This document shows positions 11,795 to 30,344 of a stretch of DNA of 53,839 nucleotides, in pieces. A program made the translations under genes and the position numbers. The stretch is from an uncultured Thermoplasmatales archaeon (GTDB taxonomy: Archaea > Thermoplasmatota > E2 > DHVEG-1). The number at the start of each line of letters is the position of its first letter. Position 1 is the first letter of the stretch. The notes under the pieces are model-generated. The model was given only the letters and a program-made list of their open reading frames with translations, did not search any database and was not told where the DNA came from. The DNA lies in the NCBI GenBank assembly GCA_964592335.1, contig CAZQEU010000002.1, forward strand, positions 1 to 53,839, written 5' to 3'.

Positions 11795-13665
11795 GTAAAA
11801 AAGTTGCTATTTGCCCGGGTTGTCATACAAAAATAGATGTTGAAGGTGAACCTGGTCAAAAAGTAGAAGTTAAATGCCCAAGCTGCGGTAAAACCGGTAA
11901 TATCAGCTTTAAGGCTGAGCTCGATCAACTTGATTTTTATCCATTAAAAGAACCTTATGCCTATGCAAAAATTTTAAAAAACTCAGATACTCTTGAGAAA
12001 TTTTACAAAATAATTGAGCCTTATTTATCAGATGAAGAACAAAAAAAACTTAATTTCATCTGGGAGACACTAATGAAAACTTTCAGTATGAGGTTAGATG
12101 AACTTGACACAAAAAAAGCAGAGAGTTATCTTAATGAACAGGTTGAAAAGGTTATTGCTAACTATGAGATGGATGTAGATGAGGTTACTAAAAAGAAAAT
12201 TTTGTACTATATTAAACGTGAGTCATTAGGCTATGGAAAAATCGATCCTTTAATGCTTGATCCAAATATTGAGGATATTAGCTGTGATGGGCAGAATGTT
12301 CCAATATTTTTATATCATCGTAAATATGGTTCACTTAGAAGTAATATCGAATTTGGTAATGAAGAAGAGTTATCTTATTTTGTAGTTCGTCTTGCACAGA
12401 AATGTGGCAAACATATCAGTATCGCAGAGCCTATGCTTGATGCTACAATGCCTGATGGGTCTCGTATTCAGATGACTCTGAGCAGCGAGGTTACAACAAA
12501 AGGCTCTACTTTTACTATCCGTAAATTCCGCGCTGATCCTTTTACACCTCCTGATCTTATAGCACTCAACACTGTTTCATCTGAGATAATGGCGTATTTC
12601 TGGCTTGCAGTTGAAAATCGTGTAAATGCACTTATTGCAGGGGGAACAGCTTCAGGTAAAACAACGATTCTTAACGCTCTTTCATTGTTTATCCCACGTG
12701 ATGCAAAGATTGTAAGTATTGAAGAAACTCGTGAGATTAATCTACCTCATCCTAACTGGATACCTGGTGTTAGCCGTAGTGGTTTTGGAGAAATAGTCGC
12801 AGATAAGATGGTAGGCGAAATTGATTTATATGATCTTATGAAGGCTGCTCTTCGTCAGCGTCCTGAGTATATTATTGTAGGTGAGATTCGTGGTCGTGAA
12901 GCATATGTTTTGTTTCAAGCTATGGCTACAGGTCATGCAACGTATAGCACGGTTCATGCTGATAGTGCAAAAAGCCTTATTCATCGTCTTGAGGGAAAAC
13001 CAATTGATATACCAAGGATAATGTTGCAGTCTCTTGATGTAGTATCTATTCATATTACAACCCGTGTTAAAGGTAAAAGAGTACGTCGTTGTAAGCAGAT
13101 AATTGAGATTATTGATATTGATCCTACCACCAAAGAGATTCTTACAAATGAGGTATTTCGCTGGGATCCATTTGAGGATAAATTCATATACACCGGAAAA
13201 AGCTATGTTTTGGAAGGAATACGTGCTCGTTGGGATATTGGTAAAGAAGAGATTACTAAAGAGATTAGACAACGTGCAGAAATACTTGAATGGATGAAAG
13301 ATACAAATGTTAGAACCTTTTTAGAGGTTGCCAAGGCTATATCACGTTATGTTGATAACCCTGAGGATTTTTTGAAAAAACTAAGAAAAACTAAGAAAAA
13401 TAATAAAAAAACAAAACAAAAAAATAATAATACAAAGAAAACTAAGGATGAAAATAAAAAGGAGATATATAGTTCTGAGGATACTAAATCTGATTTAACT
13501 GTTTTGAATAGTGTTAATAAAAAAACTGCAGAGAAACTATATGAAAATAAGATTGAGACCGTTCAGGATTTAAAGAAACACTCAATTTCAGAATTAAGTA
13601 CTATGGGATTGAAAAAAGGAGAGGCAAAAAAGATAAAGAAAGAAATAAATAAGAGATATAAATAA
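11791..13665 (+). CDS. FlaI/GspE-family pilus ATPase paralogue with an N-terminal zinc ribbon and a C-terminal Lys-rich + helix-hairpin-helix-like tail
   Basis: CPGC-x17-CPSC at the N-terminus. Same Walker/His boxes as the upstream paralogue. The tail is KKxxK-rich followed by VNKKTAEKLYENKIETVQDL...ELSTMGLKKGEAKKI. Confidence 0.85.
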   Translation: MSKKVAICPGCHTKIDVEGEPGQKVEVKCPSCGKTGNISFKAELDQLDFYPLKEPYAYAKILKNSDTLEKFYKIIEPYLSDEEQKKLNFIWETLMKTFSMRLDELDTKKAESYLNEQVEKVIANYEMDVDEVTKKKILYYIKRESLGYGKIDPLMLDPNIEDISCDGQNVPIFLYHRKYGSLRSNIEFGNEEELSYFVVRLAQKCGKHISIAEPMLDATMPDGSRIQMTLSSEVTTKGSTFTIRKFRADPFTPPDLIALNTVSSEIMAYFWLAVENRVNALIAGGTASGKTTILNALSLFIPRDAKIVSIEETREINLPHPNWIPGVSRSGFGEIVADKMVGEIDLYDLMKAALRQRPEYIIVGEIRGREAYVLFQAMATGHATYSTVHADSAKSLIHRLEGKPIDIPRIMLQSLDVVSIHITTRVKGKRVRRCKQIIEIIDIDPTTKEILTNEVFRWDPFEDKFIYTGKSYVLEGIRARWDIGKEEITKEIRQRAEILEWMKDTNVRTFLEVAKAISRYVDNPEDFLKKLRKTKKNNKKTKQKNNNTKKTKDENKKEIYSSEDTKSDLTVLNSVNKKTAEKLYENKIETVQDLKKHSISELSTMGLKKGEAKKIKKEINKRYK

Positions 13666-13711: not shown

Positions 13712-14581
13712 GTGAGGAGAATGCCGCTTAATAATTATGAGAAGTTATGCTATAGATGGTTTGGAAGATCAGCTGAAAATATAGCCTCAGACAGACTAAA
13801 AAGAGCTTTAGAGAGGGCACATATGGATATGCGTGCTGGAGCTTATCTTTCTTGGGTCTGGGTAAATACGATACTTGCAGCTCTTATTTCAACTGTTGTA
13901 ATTTTAAGTCTGATAGCTTTTTTAAACCTGGTTTTAGTTATTATAGTACTACTTTTATTTGCTCCTATTTTTGCAACTATTCTTACTTATTTCTATCTTA
14001 TGAATCTACCAGCTTCAAAAGCAAAAGCCCGTGGTAAAAAGATAGATATGCACTTGCCTTATGCACTAAATTTTATCTCTGCGATGAGCTCTGCAGGTAT
14101 TACTCCTACTGAAATATTTAAAAGCCTTTCTAAACAAAAGATATATGGTGAGATACGTGAAGAAGCTCTTTGGATTTATAGAGATGTTAGTCTTTTAGGT
14201 AGGGATATAATATCTGCTATTAAATCAAATATTGACCGAACGCCTTCTGAAAAATTTAAAGAGTTTCTGCAGGGTGCAATTGTTACAGTTCAGTCAGGCG
14301 GTGCTTTAAAACCTTATTTTATGACAAAAGCAGATCAATACACTCGTGAGAACCGTGTTGTACAAAAACAACTTATAGAAAGTCTTGGTATTATGGCAGA
14401 AGCATATGTTACTGCAGCTGTTGCAGGTGTTCTACTAATCATAATCATTCTTCCTTTGCTCATGATAATGTCTGGTGGTAAAGACCAGTTAATTATTATA
14501 TATGTCTTTGTCCTCTTGGTTGTACCTCTTATTCATTTTAGTTTTTCTTATGTTTTGTCTTCAATGTCATCTAGGGTGTGA
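13712..14581 (+). CDS. Pilus platform membrane protein with a single T2SSF domain (TadB/FlaJ N-half-like)
   Basis: TM segments flank a cytoplasmic T2SSF-like domain (LPYALNFISAMSSAGITPTEIFKSL...GRDIISAI). GTG start, or ATG at 13721. Confidence 0.75.
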   Translation: MRRMPLNNYEKLCYRWFGRSAENIASDRLKRALERAHMDMRAGAYLSWVWVNTILAALISTVVILSLIAFLNLVLVIIVLLLFAPIFATILTYFYLMNLPASKAKARGKKIDMHLPYALNFISAMSSAGITPTEIFKSLSKQKIYGEIREEALWIYRDVSLLGRDIISAIKSNIDRTPSEKFKEFLQGAIVTVQSGGALKPYFMTKADQYTRENRVVQKQLIESLGIMAEAYVTAAVAGVLLIIIILPLLMIMSGGKDQLIIIYVFVLLVVPLIHFSFSYVLSSMSSRV

Positions 14582-15546
14582 TAAAAGTGGCCGATAATAA
14601 AAGTAAAAATAGTGAAATGAAAAAACAGGGTTTTCTGAAAAGATTGTCTATGACTGGGCAGATGTCAAGATTTATTGTTTATCTTGCGGCAGGGATACCA
14701 TCTATTATCTGTATTTTTCTTGCGATACTTTCTCTTACATCTTTTTTGAATTATACAGAATTTACTTTTGGTGATAGTACTATAAAACTTTTTACTTGGT
14801 ATGACTTCATTATCTTTGCACTTATTATTTTTACTGGTGTTTATGGGATATATGAATGGTTTAGATTACGTCGCGTTCGTATGATTGATAAACGTTTTCC
14901 TGATTTTGTACGTGATCTTGCTGAATCTAGACGTGCAGGTATGACTTTTACTAAGGCTATTATGTACTCGGCAAAGGGAAACTATGGTGTGCTTACAGAT
15001 GAAATTAAAAAGATTTCTATGCAGATATCATGGGGAAATAGTGTTGAGAATGCACTAAGGGCTTTTGCAAAAAGAGTTAAAACCAAGCTTGTTATTCGTA
15101 CTATTTCACTTATAATTGAGGCTAGTAGAAGTGGAGGAAATGTTGCTGATGTTTTAGATGCAGCTAGTAAAGATGCACGTGAAATTAAACTCTTGGATTC
15201 AGAGCGACGTGCAAGTATGCTTTCATATGTTGCAGTAATATATGTTGCTATGTTTGTTTTTCTACTTATTATGATAGTTCTTTCAAAGAGTCTAATACCA
15301 AACATGGTAGGTGAAGGCGCAGCTGGATTAAAATCAGCGGGGGCCCTAGGAGGATCTTCGGGTAACCAAATTTCTCAGGATGAAATAACACAGCTTTTCT
15401 TTATAGCAAGTATCATCCAGGGTGGTTTCATGGGTATTGTTGCTGGTGTTTTTGAAGAAGGAAATGTTATCTCTGGAGTAAAACATGCGTTCTTTATGAT
15501 ACTTATCAATTGGATTGCATTGAAATTCATAGTAGGTGGAGTGTGA
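14578..15546 (+). CDS. Pilus platform membrane protein with a single T2SSF domain (TadC/FlaJ C-half-like)
   Basis: FPDFVRDLAESRRAGMTFTKAI...GNSVENALRAFAKR... plus TM segments. GTGA overlap with the upstream gene. Confidence 0.75.
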   Translation: MIKVADNKSKNSEMKKQGFLKRLSMTGQMSRFIVYLAAGIPSIICIFLAILSLTSFLNYTEFTFGDSTIKLFTWYDFIIFALIIFTGVYGIYEWFRLRRVRMIDKRFPDFVRDLAESRRAGMTFTKAIMYSAKGNYGVLTDEIKKISMQISWGNSVENALRAFAKRVKTKLVIRTISLIIEASRSGGNVADVLDAASKDAREIKLLDSERRASMLSYVAVIYVAMFVFLLIMIVLSKSLIPNMVGEGAAGLKSAGALGGSSGNQISQDEITQLFFIASIIQGGFMGIVAGVFEEGNVISGVKHAFFMILINWIALKFIVGGV

Positions 15547-15578: not shown

Positions 15579-18500
15579 TTGAATAAATCAAATGCTGTAA
15601 GTTCAGTTATTTCTTTATTTCTTGTTTTAATGATAGTTTCAACTACTACCGCTTCTGTTTTTTTATGGGGCCTGCCAGCAATTGACAGTATGAAAGCAGA
15701 TTCCAATAATAGAAAAATGGCTGAGAAATTTGAAGATTTTCATGAAACCGTAAATCAAGTTATTTCAAGTGGTACAAGTGCCTATGTTACTGAGCGTATG
15801 TCAATTGAAGAAGGATCCCTTGAGATTGATTCAGAAGGAGACAGATTGGTTACGTGGTATTCATACGATCCTGATTGGGATTTTAATGTATCTGGTCTTG
15901 AACCAGGCGATGGAAACAAGAAGGATATTTCGATAGATATTACTGATTCTCCAGGCGGTGCGGGATGTAATAAACGTGATTTTTATTGGCTTAATGAGAC
16001 TTGTTTTCTAGCTGGGACGAAGGTTTTGATGGCAAATGGAATGAGTAAAAACATCGAAGACATTAAACCTGGTGATCTAGTAAAGTCGTATGACTTTGAT
16101 AATAAAAAAATGGTAGACTCAGAGGTTGCATATCATCATGAACACTTAGCTGAGGAGATGGGAGGTTATTATCTAGTTATAAACAACAATTTATGTGTTA
16201 CGCCTAACCATAGGTTTTACACCAAAAATGGATTGGTGCAGGCTGGTAACCTAGAGGTTAAGGACAAAATATTTTCAAATGTACAAGGTACATATTGCCC
16301 TGTAAGTTCCATAAAAAAAGTATATTGCCCTAGTAAAACCTATGATCTATCAATTAAGAATCTCAATAATTACTATGTAAAATCCAATGATAAATTTTTA
16401 CTGGTACACAATGCTGGAGTAGATATAGAGCTAACTGTAGAAGAAGACATTGAATTGCAGAACCTTGAAATTGACTCCTACGGTTCCTTCATCAAATTTA
16501 ATATAAATCCGTTATATGAGCTAGGAGAAATAAATATTATTGATGCTAGACTGGAGTTATATGTTAAAGATAAGGGTGGATGGGAGCCTGTAATTTTGGT
16601 TAGCGGTGGTGGAGAGAAATGGACAGATAGTTCGGACACAGAGATAATCCAAGGTATGATTGATCCATCACAGTCATCTGTTAAACCTATCTCTATTGAA
16701 AGGTTTGATGGTGAACCTAAGAGATGGTGGCAGGCAGCAGGTATTGAAGATCTAATCATAGAAGATTATAACGCCGTAAGCGAATCGTGTTCCTTAAAAA
16801 TAGAACACCCAGGTTTCCCGTTGGATGAAATTAACGATTACACTAACAACGAGTTAATATCTATTGGTAGTCTAGCTAAATCAATTTTTATAAGATTTTT
16901 ATCCCAAGAAGTAGAACCAGACTTTTGGCCAAAATTAGTTGTTACTTATGAAACCGGCTCTTCAAATAATCCTCCAACAACCACTATTTATGACATTCCA
17001 GATCAAGTGGAGCCTACACAGCTATCTATTATATGTGGTAATGCATCCGATACTGATGGTACAATCGCAGGCGTCTACCTGAATATCCATGATGATACAG
17101 AAGACCTCTATTGGTGTGGATCATCCTGGAGTGGTACGTGTTCACCATTGCCTTCTGGTTGCTCTATGATACTTTCCGCTATGGCAAGGGATGGAAGTTT
17201 TAATGAGGAATATGAGGAATGGAATTATCTCTCTAGTAGTGTTAGTTGGACTAATGGTAATCAATATACGATAACTGCTAAGGCTAAGGATGATGATGGA
17301 GACTGTGATACCGATGGTGCAAGTGATACTTTTGTTTATGTAGAGGGTAATAGTCCTCCTGATACAGGTGTTGAAGATTTTCCTGAAAATGCTGGTCCAG
17401 AACATGTTTCTGAGATTACGGGTACTTCTTTGGATACTGATGGTACAGTTGCTGGTGTTTATTTAAGGATATATGACAGAACCAATGGCAATTATTGGAC
17501 GGGTAGCGGATGGAATTCTTTTGGGGGTGTTGTACCAGGTCAATGTAGCTATGAACTTTCCGCTGTGGCTTCTGATGGTAATGGTTTTAACAGCGGTGAT
17601 GAGGATTGGTTGTATGATTGTGAAGCTGAGGGTGTTACCTGGACTTCTGGGCATGAGTACACGGTTTATGCTAAGGCTAAGGATGATGATGGAGCTTGTG
17701 ATACCGATGGTGCAAGTGATACTTTTGTTTATGTAGAGGGTAATAGTCCTCCTGATACAGGTGTTGAAGATTTTCCTGAAAATGCTGGTCCAGAACATGT
17801 TTCTGAGATTACGGGTACTTCTTTGGATACTGATGGTACAGTTGCTGGTGTTTATTTAAGGATATATGACAGAACCAATGGCAATTATTGGACGGGTAGC
17901 GGATGGAATTCTTTTGGGGGTGTTGTACCAGGTCAATGTAGCTATGAACTTTCCGCTGTGGCTTCTGATGGTAATGGTTTTAACAGCGGTGATGAGGATT
18001 GGTTGTATGATTGTGAAGCTGAGGGTGTTACCTGGACTTCTGGGCATGAGTACACGGTTTATGCTAAGGCTAAGGATGATGATGGAGCTTGTGATACCGA
18101 TGGTGCAAGTGATACTTTTGTTTATGTAGAGGGTAATAGTCCTCCTGATACACCTTCTAATCCTGATCCTGAGAGTGATGCTGTTGATGAGAGTATAGAT
18201 GTGGAGTTATCTTGGACTGCTAGTGATCCTGATAGTAATTATGCTACTTCAGCGGTTTATTTTTCTGATCCAGCTGAGCCTGGTGATGATGAATCTGAAG
18301 CTGAGACTATAAATAATTTAGAGGATAGGATCAATTCAGATGATAATGATCAAAATACTAGTTCTAATTCGTTTGATCCAGGGGTATTAGAGTATAATAA
18401 GAAGTATTTTTGGAAGATAATCGTTTGGGATGATAAAGGGTTGAGTACTGAGGGTCCTATTTGGAATTTCACTACCGAATCAGATCCTGTGGTGAATAAT

Positions 18501-19817
18501 CCTCCTGAGATTACATATCATTATCCTGTTAATGGCTCCATCGATATTCCTGCATCTCCTACTTGTAAGGTAACTGTTTATGATGATGATAGGGATGATG
18601 TAATAAGGGTAGTTATTAAAAGCAAGCCTGAGGGTGGTTCTTGGTCTGATCCTCAGTATGATAGTACGCATTCAAGTGGTGATACAATTTCTTGGGATTA
18701 CACAAGCGCAGATGGCTCAAGTGGTGTGTTTACATATTATTGGCTTGTAACTTTAACTGATCCAAACGATGAATCTATATCTATAGAAGAAGTTTATCAT
18801 TTTACGATTTCATTGGATCCGATAGTTACTGATATTTCAGAGCCATGGGATATTAGCATGGATTATTTATCCTATTATAATGATACTGATTATGATTTTT
18901 ATGCTTCTGCATCAACACCTCATAATTTTGATATTTACTTTAACTTTTCATGGGGTGATGGAACTTCCTCAGGATGGTTGCTAGAATCTGCTGTATCTCC
19001 AGGTTCCTGTTCTGCTACACATCAGTGGTTAAATGCTGGTGTGTACCCTGTAAAAGTACAGGTTGCAAGTGACCCTGATGATGATGGCCATGGAGGTACA
19101 GGAAATAGCGATGATGCTTTTTATAGTGGTTGGACTGATCCAGTTTTTATTAAAATAGAAAACACAGTTATGGTTCCTTGTGATATTGCAATTGATGAAG
19201 CCGGTAACCCGAAGTTACATTCGGATGCTGGCTCAGGAAATGTACCTTATAATCTGGAAGGAATTGTTAGAATCGATTTATACAGTAATGATTACCCTGA
19301 TTCAAGTGACTATGGCTCAGATGTTTCAGGCAGGATTCCTTTCGGGCAAATCTGGATTTTTGATTTAGGAAAAATAACTCAAACTTATCGGGGAGCTGAG
19401 GATATATACAAAACAATTTTTGAAAATGGTGGCATAATAAGCTCAAAATCAGAATATCATTCAATGACTGAAAATTCAAATATATATAATTACAGCTCTT
19501 ATCTTGTATTCAAGTTAAATCTTGTTAGAGGTATCAACTCGATTTCAGGTAGTGGAAGCGGTATATTCAAGCTAAAACTTAAAATCAATAATAGCTATAT
19601 TAGAAATGAGCAAAACAGGATGTCCTCTAATTTAAAAGTTCAAATGTTTGGGGATTACAAAGAAGTCTGGTATGATTTTTTGACTAGTCCACTTCGCAGT
19701 TATAATTTCCAAGAGTATTCTTCAAATTCAGATATATTGCTTTATGATGAGGGTAGGTCAACTCGTTTGATACTTTCAAGCAATGTGTTAATTGCGTCTA
19801 TCTCAGGAGTGTTATAA
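15579..19817 (+). CDS. Giant (1412 aa) pilin-like surface protein: class III signal/pilin N-terminus, Hint domain, three 131-aa Ig-like repeats, FN3-like and PKD-like modules, conserved C-terminal pilin-core half
   Basis: N-terminus is MNKSNAVSSVISLFLVLMIVSTTTASVFLWG (PF07790-like). Hint blocks are CFLAGTKVLM / VTPNH / LLVHN. The WGDG motif is PKD-like. TTG start follows GAGGGGGG. Confidence 0.8.
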   Translation: MNKSNAVSSVISLFLVLMIVSTTTASVFLWGLPAIDSMKADSNNRKMAEKFEDFHETVNQVISSGTSAYVTERMSIEEGSLEIDSEGDRLVTWYSYDPDWDFNVSGLEPGDGNKKDISIDITDSPGGAGCNKRDFYWLNETCFLAGTKVLMANGMSKNIEDIKPGDLVKSYDFDNKKMVDSEVAYHHEHLAEEMGGYYLVINNNLCVTPNHRFYTKNGLVQAGNLEVKDKIFSNVQGTYCPVSSIKKVYCPSKTYDLSIKNLNNYYVKSNDKFLLVHNAGVDIELTVEEDIELQNLEIDSYGSFIKFNINPLYELGEINIIDARLELYVKDKGGWEPVILVSGGGEKWTDSSDTEIIQGMIDPSQSSVKPISIERFDGEPKRWWQAAGIEDLIIEDYNAVSESCSLKIEHPGFPLDEINDYTNNELISIGSLAKSIFIRFLSQEVEPDFWPKLVVTYETGSSNNPPTTTIYDIPDQVEPTQLSIICGNASDTDGTIAGVYLNIHDDTEDLYWCGSSWSGTCSPLPSGCSMILSAMARDGSFNEEYEEWNYLSSSVSWTNGNQYTITAKAKDDDGDCDTDGASDTFVYVEGNSPPDTGVEDFPENAGPEHVSEITGTSLDTDGTVAGVYLRIYDRTNGNYWTGSGWNSFGGVVPGQCSYELSAVASDGNGFNSGDEDWLYDCEAEGVTWTSGHEYTVYAKAKDDDGACDTDGASDTFVYVEGNSPPDTGVEDFPENAGPEHVSEITGTSLDTDGTVAGVYLRIYDRTNGNYWTGSGWNSFGGVVPGQCSYELSAVASDGNGFNSGDEDWLYDCEAEGVTWTSGHEYTVYAKAKDDDGACDTDGASDTFVYVEGNSPPDTPSNPDPESDAVDESIDVELSWTASDPDSNYATSAVYFSDPAEPGDDESEAETINNLEDRINSDDNDQNTSSNSFDPGVLEYNKKYFWKIIVWDDKGLSTEGPIWNFTTESDPVVNNPPEITYHYPVNGSIDIPASPTCKVTVYDDDRDDVIRVVIKSKPEGGSWSDPQYDSTHSSGDTISWDYTSADGSSGVFTYYWLVTLTDPNDESISIEEVYHFTISLDPIVTDISEPWDISMDYLSYYNDTDYDFYASASTPHNFDIYFNFSWGDGTSSGWLLESAVSPGSCSATHQWLNAGVYPVKVQVASDPDDDGHGGTGNSDDAFYSGWTDPVFIKIENTVMVPCDIAIDEAGNPKLHSDAGSGNVPYNLEGIVRIDLYSNDYPDSSDYGSDVSGRIPFGQIWIFDLGKITQTYRGAEDIYKTIFENGGIISSKSEYHSMTENSNIYNYSSYLVFKLNLVRGINSISGSGSGIFKLKLKINNSYIRNEQNRMSSNLKVQMFGDYKEVWYDFLTSPLRSYNFQEYSSNSDILLYDEGRSTRLILSSNVLIASISGVL
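16002..16412 (+). other. Hint (intein/Hedgehog-type) domain, 137 aa, Cys142 to Asn278 of the 1412-aa protein
   Basis: Block A is C-FLAGTKVLMANG. Block B is VTPNH. Blocks F/G are TYDLSI...FLLVHN. The +1 residue after Asn is Ala, not Cys/Ser/Thr. There is no endonuclease insert. Confidence 0.8.
17277..18152 (+). repeat. In-frame tandem repeat with a 393-bp period; 17304-18152 is nucleotide-perfect (about 2.16 copies), and a diverged copy lies upstream
   Basis: Compared block by block at offset 393 (e.g. 17341-17520 vs 17734-17913, and 17641-17700 vs 18034-18093). The antisense ORFs 17473..17736 and 17866..18129 in the track are identical. Confidence 0.95.
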
Positions 19818-19826
19818 TAAGATACA

Positions 19827-22739
19827 ATGATAAAAACAAATATATTTAAAAGCAACATAGCTGTAAGCCAGGTTTTATCGACGATATTAGTGTTATCTAT
19901 AGTTCTATCCTGTGTTGCTGGAATTATGGCTTGGGGGGTTCCTTATATTGAAGAAAATAAAATGAAAAGCCAAAGGGAGACTATTTTTAGTAACTTTGAG
20001 GTTTTTGACAATACTATTGCTAATTTACTGGTAGATGGCCCTAATTCAGCTGACACAGGAGTTATATCAAGCAATGTTGATGAAGGTGCTATTAATATTA
20101 ACTCGTTTGATTATTTCGTTGAGGGTTCTACAGACAGATTGGTTCTTTGGTATTCATATCATAATGGGACTAATTTTACAGTAGAAGGTTTAGATGATGC
20201 TGATGATACTTTTAGTGTGATGCCTACAGGATCAGATTTGGTTTTTGGTGATTGGGCATATGAAAGCTATTCTCTTAGAAAAAAATTAACTATCAATAGT
20301 GAATATGTCGATGAGGATCTATCAAATTTTCCGGTTCTTGTTAGATCAACGGTATTTACTGCAACAGATGATAATAAGGATATTATATTTGCAGATGAGT
20401 CTGGTACAAAACTTGATTATGAAATTGAAAGTTTAGACGAGGGTTCCGGTTATTTAATTGCGTGGGTAAATATACCTTATGTTTCTTCAACAGAAGATAC
20501 TGTCTTTTATCTTTATTCTAATAATGCAGAGGAAGACGATCCTCAAGAAAACTCAGAAGCTGTTTGGGATTCAGATTATATATTGGTCCACCACTTTGAA
20601 GAAACAGCAACTACTACAGTTGATGATTCTACATCTAATCAGAATGATGGTAACTTTTATGGTTTAACAGACATGTTTCGTCTTTTTTATATTAATGGAG
20701 CATTAGATTTTAATGGATCTAGTAACTATATTGATCTAGGTGATATCTCTGTTTTAGATAGCGTTGATGATTTAACTATTGAAACATTGATATTCCCAAG
20801 ACAGGAAACATATTCGGATAGTACCTCTTTAGTTGGACAAGTTAATTATTCTAATCCTAATCTATTTGGCAAATGCTGGCTTACATTAGATACAGGACTA
20901 AAGTGGGGATTTACAATAGATCCCTCAGCAGGTGATCCAAGAACTTATTGGGCCGATACATCCATTCAAAATTCTTCCTTTCAATATTTAGTTACAACTT
21001 TTGATGATAAAGGTGGTTCAGATGGTTCTTTAAACTTTTATCTAGATGGTGAATCAGATGGATCAAATGATAATATTGAAAAAGATTTAACATCAAGCGA
21101 TGAGGATTGGAAAGTAGGCTGGAATGGCAATATCTTTTTTAATGGTACATTAGATGAGATTAGAATTTCAAAGACTATCCGTGATCCATCATGGATAAAA
21201 GCAAACTACAACAATTTATTCAAGTACGATTTCGTTGAACAAGGATATGCTGTTAATCAAGGAGGAGCGCTTTTCATAGATGATGCATCAATCTATCATC
21301 TCGATCCCGGGAAAGAAGAAGATATAGATACCAAAACTTATGTTTCTATATATGATACTTATAAATATTCTCAATCTTTTAAATGCCCTTTTGAAAATGA
21401 CGAACTTGACAAAATAAAATTGTATATCGGAAAAGTAGGAAATATCTATGATAGTCTAACTGTGTCGATATATGGTGATTCTGGTGGATCCCCTGACCCA
21501 ACTGACAATTTAGGCTCTTTTGAGATTTACTCTGATAATGTTTCAACAACTATGGATTGGGTAGAATGTGATTTTTACCAAGATATTCCTCTTTTGCAAG
21601 ATACTACCTATCACATAGTGGTAAACACTAGTAGCTCTACTGGGTCTTCAGGATTTTATAAATGGCGTTATGAAAATCCTTCTGTCTATGAGGACGGATA
21701 TGCAAAATATTATGATGGATTTAATTGGGTTTATATAGAAAGTGATGATGAGTATGACTTATACAAACGTATTGTTTATAAAAACTATGATAGTCCCTCT
21801 GCTCCAAAGATAAGCGGAAGTATTCCAATACGTTCTAATCCCTATGGTTATTCGGGGGTTAAATATAATTTTTTGTTAAACAACGAAGATATGTTTGGTG
21901 ATAACTATTGGTATAAAGCCGATTGGGGTGATGGAACTACAACTGGCTGGTGTGAATCAGGAACCACTTTTTATACAAATCATACTTGGACAAAAACAGG
22001 GTTGTTTAACCCTGTGTTTAAAATTAGAAAGAAGATAGACAGTACCGATGTTTTTATTGAAAATGAGTTTGATAATGAAACGTTGTCTAATCTTTATATT
22101 CATGAAGGTATTTCATCACCTGTTAATATTTTAGATTATGGAAATCCTCAAATAACAGATGGCAGTATAATTACAACAAATATTAACTTAAATGGAACTG
22201 TATTAATCAACTTATTTAATGATGCATATCCAGCTGAATTTGGTCCACAATATATGGGAAAGATACCATTTGCTAGGATATGGGTCTTTGATCTTGGATC
22301 TATTGAATATACAGTACCATCTATTTCAGGTGTAAATACTGTTTCTCTTCAAAATGGTGCGGTTTTATCAAATGGTTTTTCTGGTTTTTCTAATAGTTTT
22401 ATAAAAAATGAACCAGCTTTTGTGGAAACAGATAAGGCTATTGCTTTACGATTGATACAAACAAAGGGTATTGGAGCTATGGCTGGTTCCGGAAGATATA
22501 AGATAAATGTCGTTCATAAAGCGTCTTATAATTGTGAAAAACCAACGCTTTATTTTGTCGATAATGTATCAAATTTTAAGATGCAGTTTTCCGGTTCAAA
22601 TTCAGACATATGGCTAAATTATTTTTTAGATAATTATGATTTTGGAATACAGGGTGATACCTTATTTTATAAGCACAATGAAAGAATATTGCTTCTCGAC
22701 AATTCTCTTTTTGAATATTATGTGGGGGGGATTTATTGA
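19827..22739 (+). CDS. Giant (970 aa) pilin-like surface protein with DUF2341 + LamG (concanavalin-like lectin) + PKD-like insert
   Basis: N-terminus is NIAVSQVLSTILVLSIVLSCVAGIMAW. DUF2341 is LRKKLTINSEYV..LSNFPVLV..DIIFADESGTKLDYEIES...AWVNIPYV...FYLYSNN. LamG is LDFNGSSNYIDLGD...LDEIRISKTIRDPSWIKANYNN. A WGDG motif is present. Confidence 0.8.
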   Translation: MIKTNIFKSNIAVSQVLSTILVLSIVLSCVAGIMAWGVPYIEENKMKSQRETIFSNFEVFDNTIANLLVDGPNSADTGVISSNVDEGAININSFDYFVEGSTDRLVLWYSYHNGTNFTVEGLDDADDTFSVMPTGSDLVFGDWAYESYSLRKKLTINSEYVDEDLSNFPVLVRSTVFTATDDNKDIIFADESGTKLDYEIESLDEGSGYLIAWVNIPYVSSTEDTVFYLYSNNAEEDDPQENSEAVWDSDYILVHHFEETATTTVDDSTSNQNDGNFYGLTDMFRLFYINGALDFNGSSNYIDLGDISVLDSVDDLTIETLIFPRQETYSDSTSLVGQVNYSNPNLFGKCWLTLDTGLKWGFTIDPSAGDPRTYWADTSIQNSSFQYLVTTFDDKGGSDGSLNFYLDGESDGSNDNIEKDLTSSDEDWKVGWNGNIFFNGTLDEIRISKTIRDPSWIKANYNNLFKYDFVEQGYAVNQGGALFIDDASIYHLDPGKEEDIDTKTYVSIYDTYKYSQSFKCPFENDELDKIKLYIGKVGNIYDSLTVSIYGDSGGSPDPTDNLGSFEIYSDNVSTTMDWVECDFYQDIPLLQDTTYHIVVNTSSSTGSSGFYKWRYENPSVYEDGYAKYYDGFNWVYIESDDEYDLYKRIVYKNYDSPSAPKISGSIPIRSNPYGYSGVKYNFLLNNEDMFGDNYWYKADWGDGTTTGWCESGTTFYTNHTWTKTGLFNPVFKIRKKIDSTDVFIENEFDNETLSNLYIHEGISSPVNILDYGNPQITDGSIITTNINLNGTVLINLFNDAYPAEFGPQYMGKIPFARIWVFDLGSIEYTVPSISGVNTVSLQNGAVLSNGFSGFSNSFIKNEPAFVETDKAIALRLIQTKGIGAMAGSGRYKINVVHKASYNCEKPTLYFVDNVSNFKMQFSGSNSDIWLNYFLDNYDFGIQGDTLFYKHNERILLLDNSLFEYYVGGIY

Positions 22740-24700
22740 AAAAGATTTTTAGTAATTCTTTGGCTGTTTCACAGGTCGTGGGTTTTATTTTATCTCTTTC
22801 ACTTATGAGTCTTGTTGCGACTTCTTCAATTCTTGTTGTAAATACTATAATCGATGAAAAAACTTCTTCAGCAGCAGAGATTCATGCTAGGGATATTGCA
22901 AATAAAATTTCAGATGCAATTATTAATGTTTGTTTATTTAAGGAGAATTATCCATCTGCTAATTATTCAACTACGGTTGATATTCCATATCAATTAATTG
23001 ATTATTTTAATTACTATATTGAGCTAAATAATAACTTTGTATTTATTAATTCCACAGATGGTTTAGTAAATGTGAAAAACTCGCTTTATAATTGCTCGGG
23101 TAGGATTGGCTGGGATATACAAGGTAGAGTAGATGGTGCAGACAAGTTGGTTATTAGTTGTAACAGCAGTAATTATGTTTATAAATTTGATTTTGGAACC
23201 AGCAATTCATCAAGTGCAAAGGGTTATACTAGAATATCTGAGAATTGTGATAACTCGGTTTGGTATACTACTTCAGGGGTTTGGAAATATAGAGTACCTA
23301 TTTTTGTTTCTAATCCTTTAAGTGAGCCGATAGATGATTATGCAGTTCTAATTCAGCTCAAAGATAAAAATTTTAATCATATATTAGTAAATGAGAACTT
23401 AAGTGATATTAGGTTTTTTGATGATGCTGGCTCTGAGCTTTACTACTGGATTGAAAACTGGTATTCAGATACTACAAAAACTTCAAGGATTTGGGTAAAT
23501 GTGTCATCGATACCTGTTGATGGATGTATGATACATATGTATTTTGGGAGATCTGCAGATAGTAGTAATCAGTATCATGATGGATCGAAAACATTTTTGT
23601 TTTTCGATAACTTTAGTAAAAATACTATGAATAAATGGGATCTTTACTATTATAACGCTGATTCTAGGATAAATATCATGGATGGTAGTCTAGTTTTAAA
23701 AAATGGTGCTGCAGTTATTTCAAAAACATATATCAATCCAGATAGTACACCTTACATACTCGAAACAAAATCAAAATCAATAAGTGAAACAGAAATTGGA
23801 CAAGGTTATGATAATCCAATAGAAGCTAGTATTTTTGCAAGAAAAACAAATGGCTCTTTTAACCCACCTTATCATCATGCTTCTGTTTTTTCTTCAGGAA
23901 CATTCGAATATCGTCCAACTGATGCTCATTATTTTGATAATGCAATTGTATATTATCAAGATGGTAAGTGGAACAATTATACTGATTATGAAACACAAGG
24001 TATAAATCAAGGATGGTATAGGCTAAAATACATATTAAATCACTCAGATGATGTGGCTGCAAGGTATTTTTATGATAACTTTGTTCTAGATGGAGAACCA
24101 AAATCTATTTCATACCGTGGTACAAAAGATGGAGCGTTTGGTCTTTGCATAGCAAATACTGAATATATTGATGAGGATTTTAATATCACAGCATATTATG
24201 ATTGGATTTTTGCAAGAAAATTCGTGTCAAATCCTAATGCTGTTTCTAGTAGGGAAGAATCAGAACCTATTGCATATGTTGGCGCGGTTCAATCAGAGGA
24301 TTATGGATGGGATACTGCTTCTGATAATATTTTATCAAAATCATCAGGTGGAACAGGAGTTGGAGATGATTTAGTGTATAGTAATGATAATAATGTTCAT
24401 TTCGAAGTTAATAATCTATCTGATTCTAAATATTATAGCATATTTTTTACAATAGGTGATTATGATACTCCACAAGATATAGAGGGTATGTCTATTGATA
24501 TTACTCATTCTGAAGGTACTGAATTATTAAGCTTTTCAGATTGTTCTGAAAACATACCTCATAAAAAACGTTGGATTTCAAATCTACAAACAGCTTCAGG
24601 AGATTTTATCTTTAGTTTTTCAAGCAGTAATAAATGGGCTATAAATGAAATAACAATAATGGAAGGAGAAAGAATTATATGGCTAGAAGGAAAAAATTAA
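22736..24700 (+). CDS. Pilin-like surface protein (654 aa) with DUF2341 and a concanavalin-like domain
   Basis: N-terminus is NSLAVSQVVGFILSLSLMSLVATSS. DUF2341 is WKYRVPIFVSN...DIRFFDDAGSELYYWIENW...IWVNVSSIP...MYFG, followed by LFFDNF...KWDL. TTG start follows GGGGGGG and overlaps the previous stop. Confidence 0.75.
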   Translation: MKKIFSNSLAVSQVVGFILSLSLMSLVATSSILVVNTIIDEKTSSAAEIHARDIANKISDAIINVCLFKENYPSANYSTTVDIPYQLIDYFNYYIELNNNFVFINSTDGLVNVKNSLYNCSGRIGWDIQGRVDGADKLVISCNSSNYVYKFDFGTSNSSSAKGYTRISENCDNSVWYTTSGVWKYRVPIFVSNPLSEPIDDYAVLIQLKDKNFNHILVNENLSDIRFFDDAGSELYYWIENWYSDTTKTSRIWVNVSSIPVDGCMIHMYFGRSADSSNQYHDGSKTFLFFDNFSKNTMNKWDLYYYNADSRINIMDGSLVLKNGAAVISKTYINPDSTPYILETKSKSISETEIGQGYDNPIEASIFARKTNGSFNPPYHHASVFSSGTFEYRPTDAHYFDNAIVYYQDGKWNNYTDYETQGINQGWYRLKYILNHSDDVAARYFYDNFVLDGEPKSISYRGTKDGAFGLCIANTEYIDEDFNITAYYDWIFARKFVSNPNAVSSREESEPIAYVGAVQSEDYGWDTASDNILSKSSGGTGVGDDLVYSNDNNVHFEVNNLSDSKYYSIFFTIGDYDTPQDIEGMSIDITHSEGTELLSFSDCSENIPHKKRWISNLQTASGDFIFSFSSSNKWAINEITIMEGERIIWLEGKN

Positions 24701-25170
24701 TTTCAACTAATAATGGTCAAATGCATGTCATGGAGGCAGTTATAGTTGCAGGTTTAATTTTTTCAGCTTTATTTTTTATAAGTAATATGGAAGTTTCTAG
24801 TTATACTACAATTGAAAAGCAAAATAAGCTAAAGCAGTTAGGTGCAAAAATATTAGAAAACGCTGAGGCAAAAGAAGATTCTACTGGAAACTATGATAAT
24901 TTTTTAATTTATTGTGTAGAAGAGAATATAAATTATTTGTATTATGATCTGGTTTCAAGCTTGCCAGAAGGTACTTTGTTTCGTTTGACAGTTGTAAATA
25001 TGTCTAAATTGTTTCATGATAATTCTGCATCTTATAATGATTGTATTTATACCAGTATTGGAACTGATATATGGGTTGATGAAGAAACAAGGGTTTCAAG
25101 AATTATAGCTTTTAATGGTTTTATCTATGAGATTGTATTGCAACTGTGGCTTAATACGGGAGGTGATTAA
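24679..25170 (+). CDS. Small pilin-like protein (163 aa) with a class III signal peptide
   Basis: MARRKKLISTNNGQMHVMEAVIVAGLIFSALFFI has a basic N-region, a G-Q junction, Glu, then a hydrophobic helix (PF04021-like). GGAAGGAG lies upstream. Confidence 0.65.
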   Translation: MARRKKLISTNNGQMHVMEAVIVAGLIFSALFFISNMEVSSYTTIEKQNKLKQLGAKILENAEAKEDSTGNYDNFLIYCVEENINYLYYDLVSSLPEGTLFRLTVVNMSKLFHDNSASYNDCIYTSIGTDIWVDEETRVSRIIAFNGFIYEIVLQLWLNTGGD

Positions 25171-25214
25171 ATCTGAAATATAATCTTATTAAAAAACTTG
25201 TAAATAAAAACTCT

Positions 25215-25631
25215 TTGTATGATAAGGATGATGCTCAGATCGTTCTAGTGGGTGGAATAATTATTACAATTGCAATTCTTAGTTTTGGTGTTATAATTAC
25301 TAGTCTTAGTGATGTGACCGAAACTATTGATAAAGAATCTTATTTGCTGTATAATTACAATAATATCCGTAAGGAATTTGGTTTGGTATTAAAGCAAAAC
25401 CTTCAACAGAATATGGATAATGATTATTTAGATTCAGATATTATTGGTTATTACTTTAATGATTCAAGGGACATACTTGTTTTCGCCGAATCCTCTCATG
25501 GTGTTTTCTTTGATGCAGAGCTTATTAGAATCGTTTATAAGGGAGAAAACATAAACGGCTTGGAAGCTAGGTTAACTCTTAGTAACGAGTATGATTATAT
25601 ATCTGAAGAGGTTACTTATTATTTTGGATAA
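25215..25631 (+). CDS. Small pilin-like protein (138 aa or more) with a class III-like N-terminus
   Basis: ...KDDAQIVLVGGIIITIAILSFGVIITS. The start is uncertain. GGGAGGTGA (25158-25166) sits 6 nt before an in-frame CTG at 25173, and the frame is open back to 25167. Confidence 0.55.
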   Translation: MYDKDDAQIVLVGGIIITIAILSFGVIITSLSDVTETIDKESYLLYNYNNIRKEFGLVLKQNLQQNMDNDYLDSDIIGYYFNDSRDILVFAESSHGVFFDAELIRIVYKGENINGLEARLTLSNEYDYISEEVTYYFG

Positions 25632-25867: not shown

Positions 25868-28204
25868 ATGAGAAAAAGAATAATAAAAAATAGATATGGT
25901 GTTACGCCACAATTCGAAGCAATTTTTGTTGTTATAACCGTTGTATCAGCGACAGCTTTAGGAGCAGTTGCTATAGGTAATTTTTTTAGTGGCTCAAACG
26001 TTGAAAAAAAGAGTCTTGAAGCTACAGCATTAGAGGTCTCTTCTCTTTTAACCCAAACCAGAGGGCAGAGCTTAGATGGTAGTCAAGCCTGGTTTGAAAA
26101 TGTTGAACATGTTAGCAGTATTGGTTTAAAAGCAGATTTAGGGGAAGAAACATGGCTACATGTGTTATATGATGTAGGGAGCTCTTCACCAGAGGAACAG
26201 GAAAATAGTAAACCAACTGTACCTGAGGTTACAGGTGAGAATGGTGAAGTAGATAAAGATTTAACTTTTACAGCGGTATCTGAAGATGTAGATGGAGATC
26301 AAATTAGATATGTATGGATTTGGGGTGATGGAGATTCAGAAGTAAGCAATTATTATGAGTCTGGTGAAAGCGATAGTCGTACTCATTCTTATTCTAATCA
26401 AGGTGGTTATACTGTAAAAGTAAGAGCCCAAGATGATGGTAACCCTGTAATGGAGAGCACTTATGCAACTATTAGTATAGAAGTTACTGATAGTAGTTCT
26501 TCAAATAATTTTCCAAATAAACCAAGTACGCCAGTTATAGTAAATCAATTTGGTGGGATTGTTAGTCCTCCCCCTGATGTGCCGAAAGCATTTTCTATTT
26601 CAGTTATTGCAAATGATACTGCGTACAATTATGGGACTGATACAACAGATCCTGATGGGGATAAATTAGAGTATGGCTGGGATTGGAATGATGATGATAA
26701 CGTGGATGGTTGGGATGATAATAAAGGGTCTTATTATGATTCAGGTGCTACAATTTCAACTGGGCATACATACAACCAATATGGTTTTTATAACCTAAAA
26801 GTTAAAGCAAGAGATACACCTGCTGGTGATAGTAGTGCTTATTCAGATTCGATTATTGTCTTTAATGATAATCGCCCTGATAAACCTGTAACTCCTTTTT
26901 CTAATGCAGCTTCTTTTTCTGCTGGAAGTTCTTATTATTTTTTTACATATACAAGTGATCCGGATGATGATTATTTGTATTATAAATTCAGGGTTCAGAA
27001 TGAAGATACTGGTGAAATATTAGAGCCTTCTGGTTGGTCACTTGTGCCCAAGGAAAGTGCTCCAAGTGGTGGTCCACCAGGGAATGAGTATGTTTATTCA
27101 GAAGAATATGTTATACCCCTTGATTGGAGTGGATGTAGCGCTAGTATTAGATCAAAGGCTAAGGATGTTACTCTTCATGAGGACTATGGTGTTGTTGAAG
27201 GACTTGAAAGTCTATGGTCTGATAGTCTTGTTATATCTATAGAAGAAGAACCAAGTGGCCCAGGTGGAGGAGGCACTCCAACTGGGTGTTGTGCTTGGGG
27301 CAAGGGTGGAAGGTGTATTGGTTATTATAACGAAGATGGTCATTGCTTAGTTAACCAAAATCCTTGTTTTCTTGCGGGTAGTAAAATATTGATGGCGGAC
27401 CGATCTGTTAAAAATATTGAAGAGATACAAGTTGGAGATACTATTCTTAATTATGATACAGAAAATGCTGTTTTTGCAAAGGATAGGGTGACTAAGGTAT
27501 TTCACCATGAACCTGACGAGCTTATAGCGGGTTATTATCTTATCATAAATGAGGAGCTAAAAGTTACACCGAACCATCCTTTGTATGTAGATGGTGAATG
27601 GGTAAAAGCAGAAGATCTAGAAATCGGTGATTCTTTGTCAAGTGGCGGCAAAATATTTTCAATTGAGAAAATAAATGAAAGAGCACCAACGTATCATATG
27701 ATAACAGAATTGTATCACAACTATGTAATAGTATTTGAAGAAGACTATGTAATTGCGATAAATGGTGATCCGGTTGGAGTATATGTAGTAGAAGCTGAAA
27801 AGGAAGTAAACCCTGTTGGAGATTATATACTTGGTGACTATGAAGAAGAACCCTCTGAAAACAGTGAAATATCTCAGCTTAACCAGGCAACAAGTATATC
27901 TTACAGCTCAGTACTTAGCATGAACAAAGTATATTCATTATCAGAAATACCCTATTCTAAGTTCAAGGAGATATTCAATCTAGATGAATTTGTAGATGTA
28001 AGCATACAGATTACTAGAATAGATCAGGAAGACCAAGAATTCTTATCATATCATCCAGATAACGGCAGATCATCTGAAAATGCTGATCAGGTAGCAGTTC
28101 ACTCTGAAAACGTCATAATATTTGCAAGACAACAAACATCCAGCTATTCACAGCAGTACTCTGATAGGTATGTACCATGTGAGCTTGAGATATCAGTTTA
28201 TTAA
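25868..28204 (+). CDS. Pilin-like surface protein (778 aa): class III-like N-terminus, about 3 PKD-like domains, Cys-rich linker, Hint domain, C-terminal region of about 146 aa
   Basis: N-terminus is KNRYGVTPQFEAIFVVITVVSATALGAVAIG. PKD motifs are WIWGDGDSE...YTVKVRAQDDG and YGWDWNDDD...YNLKVKARD. Hint blocks are CFLAGSKILM / VTPNH / YVIAIN. Confidence 0.8.
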   Translation: MRKRIIKNRYGVTPQFEAIFVVITVVSATALGAVAIGNFFSGSNVEKKSLEATALEVSSLLTQTRGQSLDGSQAWFENVEHVSSIGLKADLGEETWLHVLYDVGSSSPEEQENSKPTVPEVTGENGEVDKDLTFTAVSEDVDGDQIRYVWIWGDGDSEVSNYYESGESDSRTHSYSNQGGYTVKVRAQDDGNPVMESTYATISIEVTDSSSSNNFPNKPSTPVIVNQFGGIVSPPPDVPKAFSISVIANDTAYNYGTDTTDPDGDKLEYGWDWNDDDNVDGWDDNKGSYYDSGATISTGHTYNQYGFYNLKVKARDTPAGDSSAYSDSIIVFNDNRPDKPVTPFSNAASFSAGSSYYFFTYTSDPDDDYLYYKFRVQNEDTGEILEPSGWSLVPKESAPSGGPPGNEYVYSEEYVIPLDWSGCSASIRSKAKDVTLHEDYGVVEGLESLWSDSLVISIEEEPSGPGGGGTPTGCCAWGKGGRCIGYYNEDGHCLVNQNPCFLAGSKILMADRSVKNIEEIQVGDTILNYDTENAVFAKDRVTKVFHHEPDELIAGYYLIINEELKVTPNHPLYVDGEWVKAEDLEIGDSLSSGGKIFSIEKINERAPTYHMITELYHNYVIVFEEDYVIAINGDPVGVYVVEAEKEVNPVGDYILGDYEEEPSENSEISQLNQATSISYSSVLSMNKVYSLSEIPYSKFKEIFNLDEFVDVSIQITRIDQEDQEFLSYHPDNGRSSENADQVAVHSENVIIFARQQTSSYSQQYSDRYVPCELEISVY
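27365..27763 (+). other. Hint domain, 133 aa, Cys500 to Asn632 of the 778-aa protein
   Basis: Aligns block for block with the Hint domain at 16002-16412. It ends ...VIAIN followed by Gly. The penultimate residue is Ile rather than His. Confidence 0.75.
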
Positions 28205-29669: not shown

Positions 29670-30344
29670 ATGGCAGAAGAAATTGAAAGAATATATGTAA
29701 TTCCACTAAAAAAAACTGGTTTTAAATCAAGCAAAGCAGCACCAACCGCGATAAAAAGAGTTAAAAAATATTTAACACGCCATATGAAAGTGGAAGAAAA
29801 AAATATTTGGATAGACGACTCACTAAATACCATGCTTTGGAGCAAAGGCAGATACAATATGCCCAGCAAAATACGTGTAAAAGCAGTAAAGTTTGATGAT
29901 GGAGTGGTAGAAGCATATCTGCCAGAACTTGAATTTAAAAAATCACGTCGTGAACTACTCAAAGAAGAAAGAGAAAAGAAGGAACCAATACTTAGAAAAG
30001 AGGAAATGCCAGAAGAAGCTGAGGGTGAAGAATCAGGAACAGATGATTACGAAATGGTTCCAACATCAGATGGAGATGTTAAATTAAAGAAGAAAAAACC
30101 TGCGAAGGAAACAAAGGAAAAAGAAACTGAAGAGAAAAAAGAAAAAAAAGAAGCAGAAGAGAAACCAAAAAGCAAAGAAGAAAGTAAAAAAGGAGAAAAA
30201 AAGAAAGAAAAAATAGTAGAAAAACCAAAGAAAAAAGAAACAACGAAGAAAACCACTTCTTCTAGTAAAAAAACTTCTACTAAAACCAAATCTTCTTCTA
30301 AAAAAAGTTCTTCTAAGAAAAAATCAACAAGTAAAAAAAAGTAG
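29670..30344 (+). CDS. rpl31e: 50S ribosomal protein L31e with a C-terminal Lys/Glu/Ser-rich extension of about 130 aa
   Basis: The L31e core is ERIYVIPLKK...PSKIRVKAVKFDDGVVEAYL, followed by a KKKKPAKETKEK...SSKKKSTSKKK tail. Confidence 0.85.
   Translation: MAEEIERIYVIPLKKTGFKSSKAAPTAIKRVKKYLTRHMKVEEKNIWIDDSLNTMLWSKGRYNMPSKIRVKAVKFDDGVVEAYLPELEFKKSRRELLKEEREKKEPILRKEEMPEEAEGEESGTDDYEMVPTSDGDVKLKKKKPAKETKEKETEEKKEKKEAEEKPKSKEESKKGEKKKEKIVEKPKKKETTKKTTSSSKKTSTKTKSSSKKSSSKKKSTSKKK

Follow-up and report, generated by a model that had tools for sequence, protein, structure and literature searches.

A Hint domain nested at a fixed position in a split pilin-like protein of a conserved archaeal pilus operon

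Hint domains, among them the bacterial intein-like (BIL) domains, are familiar as inteins, as the processing modules of Hedgehog proteins and as devices for toxin release. Type IV pilins, in turn, are known to be modular; in proteins such as PilB and PilC of Streptococcus sanguinis, adhesion modules are grafted on the C-terminus and no self-processing domain is present. Here, a protein carrying both a pilin-like scaffold and a Hint domain is described. It is encoded by an open reading frame (W778; 25868-28204, forward strand) in a stretch of 53,839 nucleotides, hereafter called the window, of contig CAZQEU010000002.1 of an uncultured Thermoplasmatales archaeon. The contig is of the low-GC archaeal kind (GC content of ~33%). 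The 778-residue product is that of the last pilin-like gene of a pilus operon, and its residues 500-632 (27365-27763, forward strand) form the second Hint domain of the locus. Full-text searching of the literature that combines Hint domains or inteins with pilins or type IV pili gave no description of such an arrangement. What is new is the context, i.e., an archaeal Hint inserted at fixed positions between the two halves of a pilin-like domain, within a conserved pilus operon that holds several Hint copies.

The closest described systems are the A-type BIL and PT-HINT domains, such as those of Clostridium thermocellum (2lwy) and of the MafB and Rhs toxins. Taken together, they give the best match in sequence and fold. 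They are likewise minimal and without an endonuclease, and they share Cys1, the TxxH motif, the C-terminal Asn, the absence of a +1 nucleophile and a residence in secreted, variable surface proteins. However, the host here is archaeal and the Hint resides in a pilin-like protein encoded by a conserved pilus operon, where it occupies a loop of a conserved host domain at fixed positions; no toxin follows it, and this copy lacks the penultimate His. The BIL2 domain of BUBL from Tetrahymena thermophila (6y75/6tmm) is the top fold match and a precedent for thioester ligation to lysine (PMC8616854), but it is cytoplasmic, eukaryotic and flanked by ubiquitin-like domains, and no acceptor is indicated for the present protein. 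Hedgehog and Hog-Hint proteins also have an exported N-terminal module followed by a Hint with Cys1 and TxxH chemistry. They possess a sterol- or adduct-recognition region and no C-terminal Asn, whereas a pilin-like C-half and a conserved Asn632 are found here. Canonical mini-inteins resemble it in being a Hint fold inside a host domain, with occupied and empty alleles at one site; unlike them, the present domain is followed by Gly633 at +1, its host is not a housekeeping enzyme, and passengers have been inserted along with it. Modular pilins share with it a pilin scaffold that displays PKD, lectin-like or other adhesion modules and is encoded in a pilus operon.

That residues 500-632 are a genuine Hint domain, a member of the A-type BIL / PT-HINT family with a degenerate His-Asn end, follows from the agreement of Pfam, a sequence search of solved structures, the structural model and a fold search. 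The translation of 27365-27763 reads CFLAGSKILM...VTPNH...TYHM...YVIAIN. In Pfam, it matches PT-HINT (PF07591) with E 2.6e-11 (44.4 bits, cut-off 27.7) and Vint (PF14623) with E 2.9e-8, over the cut-off of that model. Its scores for the Pfam models Intein_splicing, Hog Hint and Hom_end_hint fall slightly under each cut-off (29.4 bits against 29.7 for the Hog Hint model PF01079), TIGR01445 gives 19.2 bits against a cut-off of 24.5, and Hint_2, the B-type BIL model of Pfam, is far under its cut-off. The nearest solved protein by phmmer against the sequences of the PDB is 2lwy (E 1.4e-7). In the AlphaFold2 model of the protein, built from 62 family sequences, residues 500-633 have a predicted local distance difference test (pLDDT) score of 93-97. 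The best PDB match of this part in Foldseek is the Tetrahymena BIL2 (E 4e-9, template modelling (TM) score 0.75, 26-28% identity); further matches are 2lwy (TM 0.75) and class 3 inteins, the BIL and intein matches ranging from TM 0.70 to 0.75. The original prediction, made from the letters of the window, had placed a second Hint in a second pilin-like protein of this locus, and Pfam, AlphaFold2 and Foldseek agree on it, as does an alignment to the first Hint over the whole length.

The catalytic residues of the domain are intact, namely Cys500, Thr567-Pro-Asn-His570 and Asn632; the penultimate His is replaced by Ile631. Cys500 and the Thr567-Pro-Asn-His570 block are invariant in one family alignment and nearly invariant in a second. 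The domain is of a minimal form of 133 residues without a homing endonuclease domain, and Pro499 and Gly633 stand at its -1 and +1 positions. The prediction had pointed to Asn632 followed by Gly and to the loss of the penultimate His; both can be read in the translation, and with no +1 nucleophile, classical splicing is excluded. The domain also models as a Hint with BIL and intein matches, and Cys500 is conserved in the orthologue P0050 (handles beginning with P and L stand for proteins and loci of other genomes).

The 146 residues after the Hint had been taken for the tail of a Hedgehog-like cargo-Hint-tail layout. This could not be upheld, as they consist of an acidic spacer and a pilin-like C-half that is shared with Hint-less proteins. 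The spacer (residues 633-675; 27764-27892, forward strand) is probably disordered, with pLDDT <50 over residues 635-665, and its position in orthologues reads Y..GG.DEE.... The C-half (residues 676-778; 27893-28201, forward strand) is modelled with pLDDT 90-97 as one short strand, two helices and four strands. An exact-sequence look-up of the protein gave no record, and word-indexed searching, whether the query was the entire protein or a profile of five orthologues, returned mostly PKD matches and no full-length orthologue. With residues 455-778, such a search gave Hint matches only, plus P0018, a protein with a target-like N-terminus (its residues 6-92 against residues 1-87 of the target, BLASTP E 2e-7), a Hint at residue 130, a PKD-like module and a segment that aligns to the tail of P0003 (E 1e-7) and more weakly to that of the target. 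An exhaustive profile search with a three-sequence tail alignment then yielded 112 cluster representatives, among which small pilin-like proteins without a Hint are numerous, and it was solely through this search that the orthologue P0050 was found.

The small relatives (164-250 residues) begin with a class-III-signal-like N-terminus, followed by a helical N-half that closes with a '..LGL.' strand and by the target-type C-segment, with the consensus Y.(V/I)LD..KI..L....Y...K.ALGL...Y.FNI.I....L.YG....S.SR.V.I....A.LTV.VF., and they carry no Hint. In the smallest Hint-less members, '...RLGLA' is joined to 'YGVLS..KI..L' across ~6 residues. The link of the target to DUF7287 is transitive, running from the tail profile to the 112 proteins, from these to P0106 and from P0106 to DUF7287; P0106 covers DUF7287 from one end to the other (E 9.5e-6; 26.7 bits, the cut-off being 27), and the tail of P0003 matches its C-terminal half with E 0.006. 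The whole protein has no direct Pfam match to a pilin-like family, Pfam scans of the tail, of the N-half and of a chimera of the two gave no match, and BLAST of the tail against the other proteins of the locus gave nothing significant. The intact host domain of P0113 was modelled with confidence (model m865fd66b0999, pLDDT 90, predicted TM score 0.73). Because the same segment occurs in Hint-less proteins of 164-250 residues, the tail is read as a pilin-like C-half. Judging from these sequence comparisons, residues 676-778 are the C-terminal half, and residues 1 to ~90 the N-terminal half, of one DUF7287-like pilin-like domain, while the PKD-like modules, the Cys-rich linker, the Hint and the acidic spacer are together an insertion of ~576 residues in a single host loop. 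The split host domain therefore points to a nested insertion that follows the logic of inteins and BIL domains, with the PKD modules as co-inserted passengers.

The N-terminal segment (residues 1-112; 25868-26203, forward strand) comprises a class-III-signal-like N-terminus, a hydrophobic helix and the DUF7287-like N-half up to its SIGLKADL strand. The N-terminus, MRKRIIKNRYG↓VTPQFEAIFVVITVVSATALGAVAIG, fits the family consensus K.(N/D)..G(V/I)(S/A/T)P.(L/I)E and shows a short charged leader, a Gly/Ala cleavage-site-like motif and a hydrophobic helix, all of which are signs of a pilin-like protein. The suggested pairing of the Hint with PF07790 finds no footing in the target, where Pfam does not detect that family at E<0.1; in P0018 the match is weak (E 0.05). 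The passenger (26204-27247, forward strand) is made of PKD-like Ig modules (Pfam PKD, E 4.9e-11; PKD_4, E 5.8e-8). Three such domains had been proposed, of which Pfam recognises two, while the third is degenerate. The AlphaFold2 model of this region has beta domains at residues 120-203 and 252-333, and Foldseek relates it to the PKD domain of the Thermoplasmatales peptidase 4xed (TM 0.77). An NCBIfam match to the pilus protein PamR of the candidate phyla radiation (CPR) in the PKD region was set aside, its score being far under the cut-off. Between the passenger and the Hint lies a Gly-rich and Cys-rich linker (27248-27364, forward strand). Its Cys-rich part had been foreseen, and it was located at residues 473-493 (27284-27346) with the sequence GCCAWGKGGRCIGYYNEDGHC and Cys at 474, 475, 483 and 493; the residues NQNP stand directly before Cys500.

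The distribution of these Hints was obtained by scanning genomes, one for each species, with a five-sequence Hint alignment. Its best matches are metagenome-assembled genomes (MAGs) of Thermoplasmatota / Thermoplasmata, often with two loci per genome. Among 65 full-length representatives of the DUF7287-like family, at least one Hint is present in 40 and none in 25, and homologues 'empty' at the Hint site are exemplified by P0058 and P0076. Two types of host recur. In DUF7287-like hosts, the Hint stands 30-50 residues after the N-half in 30/36 Hint-bearing representatives and 5-27 residues before the C-half in 5/36, the target being one of the latter at 27 residues; the only exception to the rule is P0121 (1/36). 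In hosts of the DUF7289-like type, it is always found at residues ~142-147, after W..[END]T↓C (L012, L016, L018, L027, L029, L030, P0005). The Hint thus adjoins one edge of the insertion in all but one of the 36 Hint-bearing representatives.

Hints were also seen in other arrangements. Some Thermoplasmata surface proteins have three to six Hint matches each (L007:5396-13684, L008/P0121, L030:9560-12895, L017:8270-10807, P0001), with some copies directly in tandem (HN-x2-3-C) and several with degenerate ends; the counts are six for L007, three of them partial, and three each for P0121/L008, L030 and L017. Proteins of ~1500-1900 residues from CPR-like MAGs (L037-L047, L052, L059, L061) have a Hint in mid-protein whose junctions are highly regular, GGGG↓CFLAGTK...VHN(E/D/Q)KGG, although some of the records are labelled Gammaproteobacteria. 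In bacterial-type type IV pilin-like proteins (P0006, P0007, P0008 and L033:9329-10414, the record of the last being a Planctomycetales MAG), a PT-HINT lies at the extreme C-terminus. Their N-termini read GF(T/S).IE(L/M), with a weak Pfam N_methyl match in P0007 and P0008; a poly-Gly linker, PPGGGG↓CFLAGT, precedes the Hint, and the chain ends at HN plus 2-15 residues. It is these proteins that have the true cargo-Hint layout of Hedgehog, where cleavage or transfer at the N-terminal side is the sole chemistry that makes sense.

The catalytic inventory was taken from the 126 family Hints with complete ends. Cys1 is present in 100% of those where it is readable and TxxH in nearly all. The terminal Asn is found in 123/126 and the penultimate His in 122/126, the exceptions to the latter including the target (Ile) and P0050 (Lys). 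A +1 Cys, Ser or Thr occurs in 6/66 pilin-nested copies, and since this nucleophile is rare in the family and is Gly633 in the target, classical splicing is excluded. The residue at -1 is Thr in 26/32 of the sites after the N-half; Pro at -1 is also seen in the otherwise canonical copies of L015/P0154. A-type BIL domains are expected to autocleave at either end (PMC7765530). By analogy with these, cleavage at either junction is the chemistry to be expected of the family. The prediction had allowed the target N-terminal chemistry only, and the sequences do not support this restriction: Asn632 is kept throughout the pre-C-half clade, and Pro499, if anything, is unfavourable for the N-terminal step. 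The C-terminal step in the target lineage is probably weakened by the loss of His631, while Pro499 may, from what is known of engineered inteins, slow the N-terminal one. It is known that natural inteins without the penultimate His can still cleave.

Hint #2 lies in an operon of two ATPase, two platform and six pilin-like genes, all running in one direction on the forward strand, with Hints in the first and last pilin-like genes. The first ATPase (8921-11794; T2SSE family, Pfam E 2.2e-34) shares 74-79% identity with homologues at the syntenic Thermoplasmata loci L012, L027 and L030. It was also observed that its N-terminus is extended by ~430 low-complexity residues rich in Lys, Glu and Asp, an extension that its paralogue lacks. 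This paralogue, the second ATPase (11791-13665), is seen from the translation of its reading frame, and its synteny is conserved by tblastn. Two T2SSF/TadC-like membrane platform genes follow (13712-14581 and 14578-15546; Pfam T2SSF E 3e-18 and E 1e-21). The first pilin-like gene (15579-19817; 1412 residues) has DUF7289-like N- and C-terminal parts (DUF7289 E 2.6e-4) and carries Hint #1 at residues 142-280 (16002-16418; Pfam PT-HINT E 7.4e-10), with the junctions ...LNET↓CFLAGTKV...LLVHN↓AG. Then come four Hint-less pilin-like genes (19827-25631) of 970 residues (DUF7289, DUF2341, LamG), 654 residues (DUF7266, DUF2341), 163 residues (DUF7288-like) and 138 residues. No peptidase A24 gene was found among the window's reading frames that were scanned, the scan having covered part of them.

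This operon recurs across the Thermoplasmata. It is syntenic in its entirety in L005/L029, L017, L018, L027 and L030 and in part in L004, L006, L008 and L081, with an ATPase identity of up to 79% (tblastn). The order of the four middle pilin-like genes is kept in L005, L006, L017, L018, L027, L030 and L081. The syntenic operons hold 2-6 Hints each, mostly in the first and last pilin-like genes (L004, L005/L029, L017, L018, L027, L030). The chemistry appears, from the residues at the junctions, to differ between orthologues of the first pilin-like gene. In L029:9431-13294 and L030:9560-12895, Cys1 is kept and the C-terminal His-Asn is lost (FLVR↓SD and FLVK↓SD); L018 and L027 have Thr at +1 (HN↓T), with which splicing could be feasible.

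P0050 (936 residues, L081:3775-6585) is a syntenic orthologue of the target, with 51% identity. Its counterpart Hint keeps Pro↓Cys...Asn↓Gly and has Lys as the penultimate residue. By segment, identity amounts to 66% for the Hint, 62% for the C-half, 58% for the N-half and 42% for the PKD region; the Hint also has the lowest nonsynonymous divergence (dN 0.25) of the four large segments. Synonymous divergence (dS) relative to L081 is saturated, so that dN and identity are the usable measures. P0050 bears an extra Hint of another subtype (residues ~468-628, with a long insertion) where the target has just its Gly/Cys-rich linker. A Hint has, as these sequences indicate, been gained or lost between the two orthologues, and the linker of the target may be the scar of a loss. 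In a neighbour-joining tree without bootstrap, Hint #2 is sister to the P0050 Hint within a 'pre-C-half' clade from other genomes, and Hint #1 groups with the same-site Hints of L029 and L030; thus, the domains cluster by host gene and position and not by genome. Since each of the two Hints of the window groups with same-position Hints of the same gene in other genomes, both are, by this phylogenetic pattern, old residents. They align over their whole length at 36% identity, with Cys1, TPNH and the terminal Asn common to both, and a recent duplication is ruled out by this identity and by their separate clades. It had been argued that two divergent copies in one pilus locus speak for function rather than a selfish insertion. 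The copies are old and the operon recurs, but conservation does not decide the point: a self-removing parasite is under purifying selection too, and the copy number varies between orthologues.

The reading that we prefer, with a confidence slightly better than even, is that autoprocessing after export turns the loop insertion into a singly tethered appendage and so frees one end of an adhesin stalk. As its N-terminal motif and its operon suggest, the protein would be exported and anchored through its N-terminal pilin helix. The Hint would then fold, and Cys500, with Thr567 and His570, would drive an N-to-S acyl shift at Pro499-Cys500, as in its family. The thioester would be resolved, most simply by hydrolysis, and the chain would be cut at the C-terminal edge of the passenger. 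Cyclisation of Asn632, which would free the Hint from the C-half, is probably slow or lost because His631 is gone. The product would be a two-chain minor pilin in which the PKD stalk is held by the N-half alone and the pilin-like domain is completed, through non-covalent contact, by the C-half, to which the Hint may still be attached. The rationale for a cut lies in the geometry of the loop. The ends of the host loop are ~6 residues apart in minimal relatives and a linear Ig-like chain cannot return to its start, so one end must be cut; a Hint alone would fit the loop, as its termini are close together, a general property of the fold that is expected here as well.

Large passengers do go with Hints. 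Non-Hint passengers of at least 200 residues are found in 16/36 Hint-bearing but in 1/24 Hint-less representatives (Fisher p = 9e-4), but the representatives are not phylogenetically independent and the test is uncorrected for phylogeny, which is the first of several points that weigh against the proposal. There are 'Hint-only' insertions without any passenger (P0061, P0067, P0089) and a large passenger without a Hint (P0147). The packing of the two halves is in some doubt, as the N-half of the target is poorly modelled by AlphaFold2 (pLDDT <50) and the host-domain model of P0113 has no relative in a PDB fold search (best E 0.08). In characterised and engineered inteins, N-terminal cleavage is disfavoured by Pro at -1. 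While the data show the domain and its residues, its fixed place at the edge of a passenger, its association with large passengers and its conservation, we infer export, acyl shift, cleavage and two-chain association, and the chemistry entirely so. Lastly, the purifying selection on the Hint is equally expected for a selfish element that removes itself.

Such an element is the basis of the first alternative, which we hold to be unlikely though deserving of real weight. The Hints may be selfish or near-neutral BIL-type elements that have spread, through duplication and recombination, to tolerant loops of surface proteins that evolve fast. Their catalysis would be kept only because the host protein would suffer from a Hint left unprocessed, and the pilus would gain no benefit. 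The variation in copy number among close relatives, including the extra Hint of P0050 where the target has its linker, fits this well, and so do the tandem or multiple arrays described above (L007, P0121/L008, L030, L017, P0001), the empty-site homologues and the 25/65 Hint-less members of the family. A-type BIL domains are, moreover, known as residents of hypervariable regions in non-conserved proteins (PMC7765530). Nevertheless, the 133-residue minimal form has no homing endonuclease domain, and the clades are position-specific and span genomes. Conservation is high at the insertion site and at position -1 (Thr at 26/32 sites after the N-half), and the Hints associate with large loop passengers, at whose edge they stand with the single exception noted among the 36. 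Without a +1 nucleophile, removal of the element would also leave a nick, so the insertion would not be traceless.

A second alternative, which appears improbable, is transfer chemistry of the Hedgehog or BUBL type. The Cys500 thioester would be captured by a specific nucleophile, such as a lysine of a pilus or envelope protein, a lipid or a molecule of a partner cell, and the pilin N-fragment with its PKD stalk would become covalently attached without an enzyme. The closest solved structure, BIL2, does ligate its upstream ubiquitin-like domain to lysines through an isopeptide bond and without ATP (PMC8616854). The loss of His631 with retention of Cys500 would suit a specialist of the N-terminal step, and in the bacterial-type pilins with a strictly C-terminal Hint (P0006-P0008, L033), N-terminal chemistry is the only sensible one. 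On the other hand, the target has no acceptor-recognition region, its Hint being followed by the acidic, probably disordered spacer and then by the pilin C-half; His-Asn is kept by most members of the family, which are hence equipped for double cleavage; and no candidate acceptor can be identified from sequence. The extension of this idea to the whole operon, with the Hints as enzyme-free ligases whose thioesters at Cys500 and at Cys142 of Hint #1 are attacked by a lysine or hydroxyl belonging to an adjacent subunit, the envelope or a partner cell, is given equally little credence.

It is very improbable that the Hint is catalytically dead and has been domesticated as a structural spacer or an interaction module. 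The junctions of the target and P0050 are indeed unusual, with Pro at -1, Ile or Lys for the penultimate His, and His for the Asp/Asn after the block-F Tyr, and the C-terminal motifs are clearly lost in L029, L030, L022, L025 and P0012. However, Cys500, Thr567, His570 and Asn632 are all kept in both orthologues, whose domains are 66% identical, and Pro at -1 is shared by canonical copies. The classical PT-HINT role, the release of a C-terminal toxin domain, is scarcely credible and was rejected; although the best Pfam match is Pretoxin HINT and related Hints precede toxin-sized C-terminal tails in Streptomyces Rhs-like proteins, the tail here is homologous to the C-half of small Hint-less pilin-like proteins, and downstream of the gene lie Rpr2, S19e, L39e, L31e and eIF6 genes in place of an immunity gene.

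A few other features of the window may be recorded. A gene a short way upstream of the pilus locus (4528-5973, forward strand) codes for a Peptidase_C25 (gingipain-like) protein; C25 peptidases fused to PKD domains are also present among the PKD homologues from Thermoplasmatota. Downstream, an L31e-like gene (29670-30344, forward strand) has a tail of ~100 residues rich in Lys, Glu and Ser (KKKEK...SSSKKSSSKKKSTSKKK). On the reverse strand, 22 kb from the Hint genes, a 1105-residue MMPL/RND protein (49640-52957) shows sterol-sensing-domain and Patched-SSD matches. The presence of a Patched-like MMPL/RND gene on a contig with Hedgehog-type domains is probably a coincidence.

Small archaeal BIL domains that are presumed to be extracellular could serve as self-cleaving or ligation tags. 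If the ligase reading were true, archaeal pili would be covalently cross-linked or adhesive, a counterpart of sortase-built pili and thioester adhesins reached via Hedgehog/BUBL chemistry. More broadly, position-fixed Hints in pilin-like proteins would add to pilus biogenesis a self-processing step that is not described for type IV pili in the searchable literature. The pattern is one of 2-6 copies per operon over a clade of Thermoplasmata, with apparent C-terminal counterparts in bacterial-type pilins. The finding also suggests a general solution to a problem of protein design, namely how a compact scaffold can display, on one of its internal loops, an adhesin stalk that is long and linear.

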